43,705 nucleotides of DNA, taken from NCBI GenBank assembly GCA_032249395.1, contig JAVVFY010000006.1:1-43705 (forward strand), in the 5' to 3' direction. Made by a program: the position numbers and the translations under genes. Of the stretch, positions 7,584-36,876 are shown piece after piece. Source of the stretch: Candidatus Aenigmatarchaeota archaeon. GTDB taxonomy: Archaea > Aenigmatarchaeota > Aenigmatarchaeia > CG10238-14 > SpSt-28. The notes under the pieces were generated by a model. That model saw only the letters and a program-made list of their open reading frames with translations. It was not told where the DNA came from and did not search any database. Numbering within the stretch: position 1 is the first letter of the stretch; each line of letters starts with the position of its first letter.

Positions 7584-7683
7584 TGGGGCTGCTGGGATTT
7601 GAACCCAGATCAGCTGGTTTCCTCATTTTGTCGGAGCTCCATAGCTGGAGCCAGCCGTCCTAACCTGGTTAGACGACAGCCCC
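7584..7683 (-). tRNA. tRNA-Trp(CCA) with 26-nt intron at 37/38 (7619-7644)
   Basis: Acceptor GGGGCTG/CAGCCCC, anticodon stem GCTGG/CCAGC, CT-CCA-G, T-loop TTCAAAT. Confidence 0.9.
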
Positions 7684-7717
7684 ATAAATCATTTCTAACT
7701 TTAGCGTTTATTAAACT

Positions 7718-7789
7718 TGGGTCCGCTGGGAATTGAACCCAGCTCTCCGCCGTGTGAGGGCGGCGTCCTAACCGCTAGACTACGGACCC
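7718..7789 (-). tRNA. tRNA-Val(CAC)
   Basis: Cloverleaf with GGGTCCG/CGGACCC and CCGCC-CTCACAC-GGCGG. Confidence 0.95.
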
Positions 7790-7820
7790 AATAAATATTT
7801 TTGAAAACAAAAATTAGTTT

Positions 7821-9693: not shown

Positions 9694-9729
9694 TATAGTT
9701 TTTATTGAAAATAAAAATTAAAAAATTGT

Positions 9730-10000
9730 GGGTGACACGCCCTCGGTGGATAGACGTTATCTTACTACTTAATCCAACTAACCCTTCTAAACCCCGTATC
9801 TCTACAGCATTTAGTTATCTCCTTACCCTTGCTGCATTCCTGCCCTGGGGGATTCGGAGATAACTAAACCCATAGAGGCGAGGTTTCATCGTCGGGTAGT
9901 TGGGGTAGTAAGATAACGTCTACCGCCCTCGGGCTTCGGCCCGGCCATTATGGACCGTTTGCCGTGACAGGCGAGGCCCAGCCGCCCGGCCTAGTCACCC
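9730..10000 (-). ncRNA. ffs: Archaeal SRP RNA (7S)
   Basis: GC-rich; paired ends GGGTGAC/GTCACCC; Alu-like 5' GGCCGGGCGG; long helix 5; helix 8 CCAGG-GCA-GGAA-TGC-AGCAAGG. Confidence 0.9.
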
Positions 10001-10075
10001 ACTATTTATATTTTGAATGCATAGAAATATATTTAAATATTTCAACTCACTATAAGTATAGCATAGGTGAAAATA

Positions 10076-11904: not shown

Positions 11905-11912
11905 TGATTTTT

Positions 11913-12040
11913 TGCAGGGGGTGGGATTTGAACCCACGAAGGGACTAACCCAGCAGGTTTCTTCTTAGCACCTAAGCTTCGGCTAATTCTGAGCTTCAGC
12001 TTTTTATCTGCCGCCATCGACCAGGCTAGGCGACCCCTGC
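11913..12040 (-). tRNA. tRNA-Leu (most likely TAG) with introns at 30/31 and 37/38
   Basis: Same D-arm, variable arm and T-arm as the other two Leu tRNAs; removing 30 nt and 12 nt gives an 86-nt tRNA with CT-TAG-GA loop. Confidence 0.8.
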
Positions 12041-12093
12041 ACTAATAGAACTTGTTTTAGAAAAATTAAAAATGAATTCTTCCAAAGAATCAA

Positions 12094-21144: not shown

Positions 21145-21268
21145 GCGGGGGTCGCCTAGCCTGGTCGATGGCGGCAGGCTCAAGTAAGGTTTTCTTGAGC
21201 TTTGATTAGATGATGAGAAGAAACCTGCTGGGTTAGTCCCTTCGTGGGTTCAAATCCCACCCCCCGCA
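21145..21268 (+). tRNA. tRNA-Leu(CAA) with 38-nt intron at 37/38 (21185-21222)
   Basis: GCGGGGG/CCCCCGC-A, GCAGG/CCTGC stem, long variable arm; 86 nt after splicing. Confidence 0.9.
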
Positions 21269-36741: not shown

Positions 36742-36876
36742 GCCGGGGTCGCCTAGCCTGGTCGATGGCGGCAGCGCCATTGTCGAAGCTTAAGTGCTGG
36801 CTAGGCACATAAGCTCAGATTAATGAAGAAACCTGCTGGGTTAGTCCCTTCGTGGGTTCAAATCCCACCCCCGGCA
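36742..36876 (+). tRNA. tRNA-Leu(TAA) with introns at 30/31 (36775-36787) and 37/38 (36795-36830)
   Basis: Leu-type arms and A73; removing 13 nt and 36 nt gives an 86-nt tRNA with GCAGG-CTTAAGA-CCTGC. Confidence 0.85.

Follow-up and report, generated by a model that had tools for sequence, protein, structure and literature searches.

tRNA-Trp gene and its intron

The DNA analysed here is a stretch of 43,705 nucleotides (nt), contig JAVVFY010000006.1 of a Candidatus Aenigmatarchaeota archaeon (assembly GCA_032249395.1), referred to below as the window. Its minus strand carries a tRNA-Trp(CCA) gene interrupted by a 26-nt intron, and this intron contains the elements of a candidate box C/D-type methylation guide for the wobble nucleotide C34 of the same tRNA. 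An earlier reading of the DNA letters, hereafter called the original prediction, had described the intron as a stripped-down guide RNA. The genome (752,806 bases in 25 contigs) gave 45 tRNA calls, with a single Trp tRNA among them. The gene scored 52.8 bits against the Rfam tRNA model with an anticodon-loop insertion of 30 nt; it was missed by ARAGORN under default settings, and was called as Trp (cca) with an intron of 26 nt in intron mode. The gene, its intron and the elements recognised within the intron are as follows.

7584..7683, minus strand: tRNA-Trp(CCA) gene (Rfam tRNA, 52.8 bits; ARAGORN in intron mode)
7683..7645, minus strand: 5' exon, G1 to G37
7618..7584, minus strand: 3' exon, A38 to A73
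7619..7644, minus strand: 26-nt intron at position 37/38 (ARAGORN), flanked by G37 (7645) and A38 (7618)
7646..7650, minus strand: target strand C32 U33 C34 C35 A36, with C34 at 7648 and the anticodon CCA at 7648..7646
7635..7641, minus strand: guide UGGAGCU (minimum-free-energy hairpin; xGAG-N2-NNGA in 78 of 78 arms)
7631..7634, minus strand: D-type box CCGA, a CUGA variant (GA kept in 67 of 67 unique relatives)
7627..7630, minus strand: CAAA, loop of the kink-loop (K-loop), read directly; its length and sequence vary among relatives
7620..7626, minus strand: C-type box AUGAGGA, an RUGAUGA variant (UGA invariant in relatives)

The insert is flanked by G37 and A38 in all 67 unique sequences of relatives described below, and the base preceding A38 is A, C, G or T. 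Since only a cut at 37/38 leaves a purine at position 37 in all relatives, the splice site was placed there. The intron, read directly and re-extracted from 7644 to 7619 of the minus strand, is CTATGGAGCTCCGACAAAATGAGGAA, in which CTAT, GGAG, CT, CCGA, CAAA, ATGAGGA and a final A follow one another; the string CCGA-CAAA-ATGAGGA-A of the original prediction is thus present letter for letter.

The bases UGGAG (TGGAG, 7641..7637) are the exact complement of C32 to A36, and the C and U that follow could extend the pairing to G31 and G30. Five bases upstream of CCGA, at N+5, lies G (7639), which pairs with C34 at 7648, as had been proposed. The CCGA box matches the D-box consensus CUGA at 3 of 4 positions, and AUGAGGA matches the C-box consensus RUGAUGA at 6 of 7, with G and not U at position 5. 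This G is matched by a C at position 2 of the D box, giving a C-G pair, so that G23 and G24 of the C box pair with C12 and C11 of CCGA. G21 and A22 of the C box would be the sheared-pair partners of the D-box GA, the sheared pairs being predicted from the invariant GA dinucleotides. CAAA together with A19 and U20 of the C box makes up 6 nt between the two GA dinucleotides; this short connection between the boxes makes the motif a K-loop. For the precursor, the minimum-free-energy fold (-41.7 kcal/mol, z = -2.6) included both the guide:anticodon hairpin and a 3-bp UCC/GGA stem around the boxes. When the intron was shuffled, the full arrangement (TGGAG, 2 nt, NNGA, 2-14 nt, TGA and two pairing bases) appeared in 6 of 2,000,000 shuffles, and with the guide held fixed in 175 of 500,000.

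Conservation and covariation of the boxes

When 41 related genomes were searched with the precursor by BLAST and then examined with ARAGORN, 23 Trp genes were obtained, all with the same layout and with introns of 22-46 nt. A covariance model made from these 23 relatives matched 118 of 118 genomes of the order. The best match per genome was fetched, and among the 93 genomes with loci a script recognised the anticodon arm of Trp(CCA) in 78. Each of these 78 arms contained xGAG-N2-NNGA, and the guide-to-box spacing that sets C34 at N+5 was identical in every one of them; TGA-NN followed 2-14 nt downstream, within the intron, in 74. For the counts given below, these 74 arms were collapsed to 67 unique sequences.

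The GA of the D box and the UGA of the C box were invariant in all 67 sequences. The D box was TTGA in 35, CTGA in 17, ATGA in 5, CCGA in 4 and other words in 6. Position 1 of the D box and position 6 of the C box (D1:C6) were paired in 66 of the 67 (U-A 31, C-G 24, U.G 6, A-U 5, non-pair 1), a level reached by 0 of 10,000 column shuffles. For D2:C5 the counts were U.U 29, which is the canonical C/D pair, U-A 23, C-G 5, U.G 5, G-C 1 and non-pairs 4. Such pairs are what the non-canonical stem of a kink-turn (K-turn) should show at D1:C6 and D2:C5. Some relatives carry canonical CUGA and AGAUGAUGA (GAUGAUG) boxes. Random divergence of the boxes among relatives had been named beforehand as the outcome that would speak against a guide; what was found instead was conservation and covariation, extending to the consensus-like forms. 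When the strict module pattern was applied to 371 sampled genomes of the phylum, it was present in 103, and the reversed pattern in 0 of 371.

Several variants were noted beside these sequences. In a strain variant from hot-spring metagenomes (7615-7653, contigs of run X5), CCGA is changed to CTGA, with UGAGG giving U.G, and loop bases are changed; the same variant has a compensatory change of U29-A41 to C29-G41 in the anticodon stem. In four genomes (L023/L111 of G021, L112 of G067, L104 of G113 and L090 of G114) guide and D box are present in the 37/38 intron and the C box is not; a C-box-like word (GATGATA, GATGAGA, ATGAAGA or ATGATTA) is carried by an additional insertion, placed between D arm and anticodon stem. 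The flanks of this word complement the bases after the D box, for example TATCA/TGATA, TTCC/GGAA and CTTC/GAAG, and such a split arrangement would make a true K-turn wrapping the target. Another family of the class has more compact modules (G225:C4:17473-17513 and G224:C17:8809-8854), for example TGGAG-CG-GTGA-GA-TGA-AA directly before the anticodon stem, which suggests a reduction in a second family.

Relation to the two-guide Trp introns

According to excerpts of the published descriptions, the classic euryarchaeal pre-tRNA-Trp intron guides 2'-O-methylation of both C34 (Cm34) and U39 (Um39). A pattern scan of named records returned at least 120 stretches, with 58 Trp arms among the matches listed; the classic box order was taken from classic-type sequences in the records scanned. 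Among the matches listed, Methanobrevibacter, Thermoplasmatota, Methanomassiliicoccales and some Micrarchaeota had the order C box, guide, D', C', guide, D, with the guide upstream of the 3' D box reading ...UGGAG-NN-NNGA; Woesearchaeota, Undinarchaeota, Nanohaloarchaea, Altiarchaeales and other Micrarchaeota had one guide, D box, short hairpin and C box, that is, a K-turn closed by a stem-loop; and the Candidatus Aenigmatarchaeota records had a loop-only mini form like that of the window. The unit made of the position-34 guide and its D box is common to all three layouts, and the window therefore stands at the reduced end of a series. The comparison across DPANN archaea that had been suggested as a check was consistent with the original prediction, the same reduced module being found in the Trp arms of Candidatus Aenigmatarchaeota among the matches listed. 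By position, the boxes of the window intron appear to correspond to the 3' D box of the classic intron and to a C box relocated to the 3' side of that D box, and not to the internal D'/C' pair.

Traces of the second guide were detected in 15 of the 67 unique relatives (G010, G022, G026, G029, G030, G044, G051, G052, G055, G057, G059, G060, G061, G063 and G097; loci L026-L099). Here the 5' portion of the intron, in some cases joined by exon positions 35-37, pairs over at least 4 bp with positions 38-43 and is followed by NNGA, with N+5 pairing to position 39; the registers N+3, N+4, N+6 and N+7 gave 1, 0, 1 and 0. By the same register test, the window intron has no second guide for position 39. 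As no C-type box lies between the two guides in these relatives, their box order differs from that of the classic intron. In relatives of this kind, such as G055 or G022, methylation of position 39 would be expected in addition to that of position 34. The description of the window intron as stripped down to one guide agrees with these results and with the intron lengths of the order (22-46 nt). The further suggestion that the Leu-intron modules descend from it is not supported by any evidence for a direction of descent.

Overlap of the C box with the splicing fold

The 3' part of the intron also contains candidate elements of a bulge-helix-bulge (BHB) fold, which in archaeal tRNA introns has a central helix of 4 bp between two 3-nt bulges with the splice sites; they are listed here.

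7621..7624, minus strand: GAGG, presumed central-helix strand of the BHB fold, overlapping the C box
7618..7620, minus strand: AA/A, presumed 3-nt bulge with the 3' splice site (A25, A26 and A38), a role assigned from the BHB rule

GAGG of the window would pair with the target strand as C32-G, U33.G, C34.A and C35-G. Leaving aside its final two bases, the intron ends in GAAG in 53 of the 67 unique sequences and in GAGG in 8; these four bases would pair with C32 to C35 as C-G, U-A or U.G, C.A and C-G, and the C34.A mismatch is kept among relatives (GAAG, 53/67). The 3' bulge is AAA in 46 of 67, and the outer helix is absent (0 bp) in 29 of 67. For the window arm, the guide fold was calculated at -15.0 kcal/mol versus -3.8 kcal/mol for the BHB-like fold. 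In 23 of the 67 sequences the C box and the splice-helix strand share bases, as they do in the window. Because the GAGG of the C box is the very strand needed opposite C32 to C35 in the splice fold, the guide fold and the splice fold are mutually exclusive, and any methylation would then precede splicing. A switch between the two folds, with the ribonucleoprotein (RNP) acting ahead of splicing, may be proposed on this ground. Two genes with splicing-endonuclease domains are present in the genome (C2:53656-53934 and C3:60241-60486).

Guide proteins and other tRNAs of the genome

The genome encodes fibrillarin (PF01269, 234 bits), Nop5 (PF01798, 210.6 bits) and L7Ae (PF01248, 96.7 bits; C2:26982-27254). 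A module with N+5 at position 34 was found in 7 of its 18 intron-bearing tRNA calls, namely Trp, Met, Leu-CAA, Ser-CGA, Ser-TGA, Glu-TTC and Gln-TTG, while the other registers in the same test gave 0, 2, 0 and 0. Across the seven tRNAs the guide changes with the anticodon, and the spacing is fixed. The six modules outside the Trp gene are located as follows.

21145-21268 of the window, plus strand: Leu-CAA, with intron module (register test)
C2:102786-102892: Glu-TTC
C4:20739-20842: Met-CAT
C5:26684-26803: Ser-TGA
C5:36039-36152: Gln-TTG
C12:6099-6208: Ser-CGA

The Gln gene was called 'Stop tta' by ARAGORN, and we read it as Gln(TTG). The target set overlaps one already described, as C/D small RNAs (sRNAs) of Pyrococcus target position 34 of Trp, Met, Leu(CAA) and Leu(UAA) according to excerpts of the literature. 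In the window, the 11-nt intron of Glu(CTC) and the 38-nt intron of Tyr(GTA) are without the module. Their use as an internal control in the original prediction was correct as to this absence; the control is weak, because 11 intron-bearing tRNAs of the genome lack the module and 7 carry it. In a crude scan for stand-alone canonical double-guide C/D sRNAs, from which absence is not proven, a strict regular expression found 0 in the genome, and relaxed expressions found 16, 18 and 1 versus 9-20, 17-21 and 0-1 in shuffled genomes, with no excess.

A probable single-site guide and its alternatives

We consider it probable, judging from sequence and predicted folding, that the intron is a genuine methylation guide of the box C/D type, kept by selection and cut down to a single site. 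UGGAG of the pre-tRNA would fold back on C32 to A36 across a 4-nt loop made of G37 and three intron bases. Two bases on, CCGA and AUGAGGA would form the K-loop, with tandem sheared G.A pairs, two C-G pairs and a 6-nt loop replacing the stem. L7Ae is expected to bind this K-loop and to recruit Nop5-fibrillarin, and the fixed distance from the D-type box would put the 2'-OH of C34, at N+5, into the active site of fibrillarin, producing Cm34. The GAGG of the C box would serve a second time as the splice-helix strand, after methylation.

A number of points weigh against this reading. The usual guide-target duplex of C/D RNAs is about 10-12 bp. The duplex here is 5 bp (UGGAG:CUCCA), with a maximum of 7 if G30 and G31 leave the anticodon stem. 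Both boxes are off consensus (CCGA; AUGAGGA, in which position 5 is G), and a bipartite C/D plus C'/D' architecture is lacking, the 26 nt holding a single box of each type. No Rfam C/D family matched at a permissive threshold, the best being sR33 at 10.3 bits and E 5.8, which is noise; only the tRNA model matched. Retrieval of the relatives was biased, since the model and patterns were built from module-bearing sequences, and Trp genes without the module cannot be counted in such searches. In 15 of the 93 genomes no Trp arm was recognised, and module-free Trp genes may have been missed there; for several of these 15, the ARAGORN output shows the module anyway. Related genomes are also non-independent samples, and because the guide helix always starts at C32, the fixed spacing could in part reflect the geometry of a three-way junction. 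The locus was found in 20 sequencing runs, all from hot springs metagenomes, of which 1 was RNA; the RNA contigs cover 7684-7800, outside the Trp gene, no joints were seen, and these runs speak neither for nor against expression or splicing of the intron. Finally, excerpts of a study of synthetic RNPs describe a single-site archaeal C/D RNP as active and site-non-specific, and earlier single-site constructs as not viable (Hardin and Batey 2006, PMC1635284).

The alternative that survives best, unlikely as we judge it, accepts a real K-loop bound by L7Ae and denies that it guides methylation; the element would be structural or act as a chaperone, would set the timing or licensing of splicing, or would be a decaying relic of the classic guide. 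Covariation proves the pairing of the K-loop and not catalysis, the synthetic single-site RNPs lost site specificity according to the excerpts just cited, the duplex has only 5 bp, and a splicing switch would be in keeping with the overlap between C box and splice strand found in 23 of the 67 unique sequences. Against this alternative, the spacer that places N+5 at position 34 is 2 nt long without exception, in all 78 arms as in the classic introns, and the second guide of relatives obeys N+5 as well, at position 39. Moreover, the module is matched to the anticodon in each of six further tRNAs, with position 34 at N+5 every time, and fibrillarin and Nop5 are kept in a 0.75-Mb genome without an excess of stand-alone guides in the crude scan.

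Less probable still, and compatible with the guide reading preferred here, is the action of the excised 26-nt intron, possibly circularised, in trans on pre-tRNA-Trp or on another RNA. With a guide of 5-7 nt, a duplex between two separate molecules would be very short for the temperatures of a hot spring, taken from the habitat label, and in the shortest forms guide and target are joined by a 4-nt loop; these features stand against excerpts of the literature in which in vitro data on Haloferax favour trans action, and archaeal tRNA introns can be circular and stable.

Very unlikely, in our estimate, is an origin of the whole pattern in the needs of the splicing endonuclease, that is, anticodon-intron pairing with a relaxed BHB and neither K-loop nor L7Ae binding. 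Anticodon-intron pairing is common in tRNA introns, and the 3' element GAAG/GAGG-AA is common to introns of different tRNAs, as such an origin would have it. However, D1:C6 covaries (U-A, C-G, A-U) also in sequences whose C6 is not part of the splice helix, such as those of G018 and G025, and the BHB fold gives the D-box GA no role. In the longer introns of relatives the C box and the GAAG element stand apart, and the C box of the four genomes with a split arrangement lies in another insertion with a terminal stem, where it would form a true K-turn. That the box-like words arose by chance, for which only the shortness of the motif speaks, is a negligible possibility in view of the 6 in 2,000,000 shuffles, the conservation and covariation, and the 103 against 0 of 371 genomes for the pattern and its reverse.

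Returning to the guide reading, we put forward a wider proposal more tentatively, as one that falls somewhat short of an even chance. The lineage may use natural single-site ('half-mer') C/D RNPs, assembled on intron K-loops, to methylate the wobble nucleotide of their own tRNA in cis in at least 7 tRNA species. These modules might be the main or only guide set left in the genome, and the fold switch would hold splicing back until methylation has taken place.

Comparison with known guide systems

The closest known system is the classic Trp intron (Haloferax volcanii; Pyrococcus sR50). It shares with the window intron the host gene, the 37/38 site, the UGGAG-N2-NNGA unit with C34 at N+5, and the encoded protein set. 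From excerpts of its description, part of the guide pairing in the classic intron also uses exon bases, so that there, too, the reaction must precede splicing. The window intron has 26 nt, compared with 103 nt in H. volcanii and an archaeal Trp median of 65 nt in the excerpts available. It has one guide and not two, is without the 5' C box and the internal D'/C' pair, and forms a duplex of 5-7 bp. Its C-type box lies 3' of the D-type box, in a K-loop and not a terminal K-turn, and doubles as the splice-helix strand.

A C/D-type RNA in a non-Trp tRNA intron of a DPANN archaeon has been proposed before, for the 66-nt tRNA-Met intron of Nanoarchaeum equitans (Randau 2012, PMC3491384, in excerpt). 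It parallels the Met, Leu, Ser, Glu and Gln modules of the present genome. The Nanoarchaeum intron differs in its length of 66 nt, its consensus D box and its long GC hairpin from the single K-loops of 25-40 nt, and the passages at hand name no N+5 target. The synthetic 'hemi' RNPs (PMC1635284, in excerpt) combine one K-turn motif with one guide, as proposed for the intron. They are engineered and trans-acting, whereas the natural module tethers its target in cis by a 4-nt loop, and this tether might restore specificity. Excerpts on stand-alone position-34 C/D sRNAs for Met, Leu(CAA), Leu(UAA) and Trp (Pyrococcus sR49 and others; Haloferax sR-tMet) describe the same target position and an overlapping tRNA set; these sRNAs are separate genes with C/D and C'/D' motifs. 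A passage of the 2008 survey calls the Met guide 'always exonic' (Grosjean et al. 2008). In contrast, the Met guide of this genome sits inside the Met intron. The Trp intron was called a unique example in a passage of a 2014 review. Among open-access papers and preprints, no description was found of a single-site, a 22-26-nt or a DPANN Trp-intron guide. The intron appears, as far as can be read from its sequence and from comparison with relatives, to be a minimal variant of a known guide system that is new in form.

Reconstitution work holds that methylation by archaeal C/D enzymes is efficient and specific only when two motifs are juxtaposed. A conserved module found in nature, in which a tethered guide of 5-7 nt goes with one K-loop, would put this two-motif rule to the test, and would define the minimal RNA for guided 2'-O-methylation. 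If the wider proposal is true, these introns would be the smallest known RNA-guided modification units (22-26 nt) and would offer a functional reason why reduced genomes retain introns. The guide reading would also bear on the persistence of tRNA introns: the intron would pay for itself through Cm34, which keeps tRNA-Trp from reading UGA. Across DPANN archaea a graded series leads from classic dual guides of 60-100 nt to single guides of 22 nt, and intron-borne guides would be extended from Trp to the Met, Leu, Ser, Glu and Gln tRNAs.

Other features

Upstream of the Trp gene, about 28 nt before G1, direct reading gave a possible archaeal TATA-like element.

7707..7715, minus strand: TTTAATAAA, possible TATA-like element

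A protein-coding reading of the Trp locus was rejected, as it offers just a mechanical plus-strand open reading frame of 45 amino acids that overlaps two tRNAs. The palindrome GGAGCTCC was considered as a dimerisation site and dropped, since it is not conserved (GGAGCACC in G009 and G015). Elsewhere in the window, ARAGORN called 'Phe aaa' with a 44-nt intron (11912-12041, minus strand) and 'Asn att' with a 50-nt intron (36742-36876, plus strand). Both are probably miscalled tRNAs, likely Leu, with non-canonical insertions containing CTGA/CAGA words. A call of 'tRNA-Arg tct' with a 625-nt intron at C11:3498-4214 is probably a false call on a structured RNA. The archaeal signal recognition particle RNA was found at 9729-10001 of the window, on the minus strand, with 145.8 bits.
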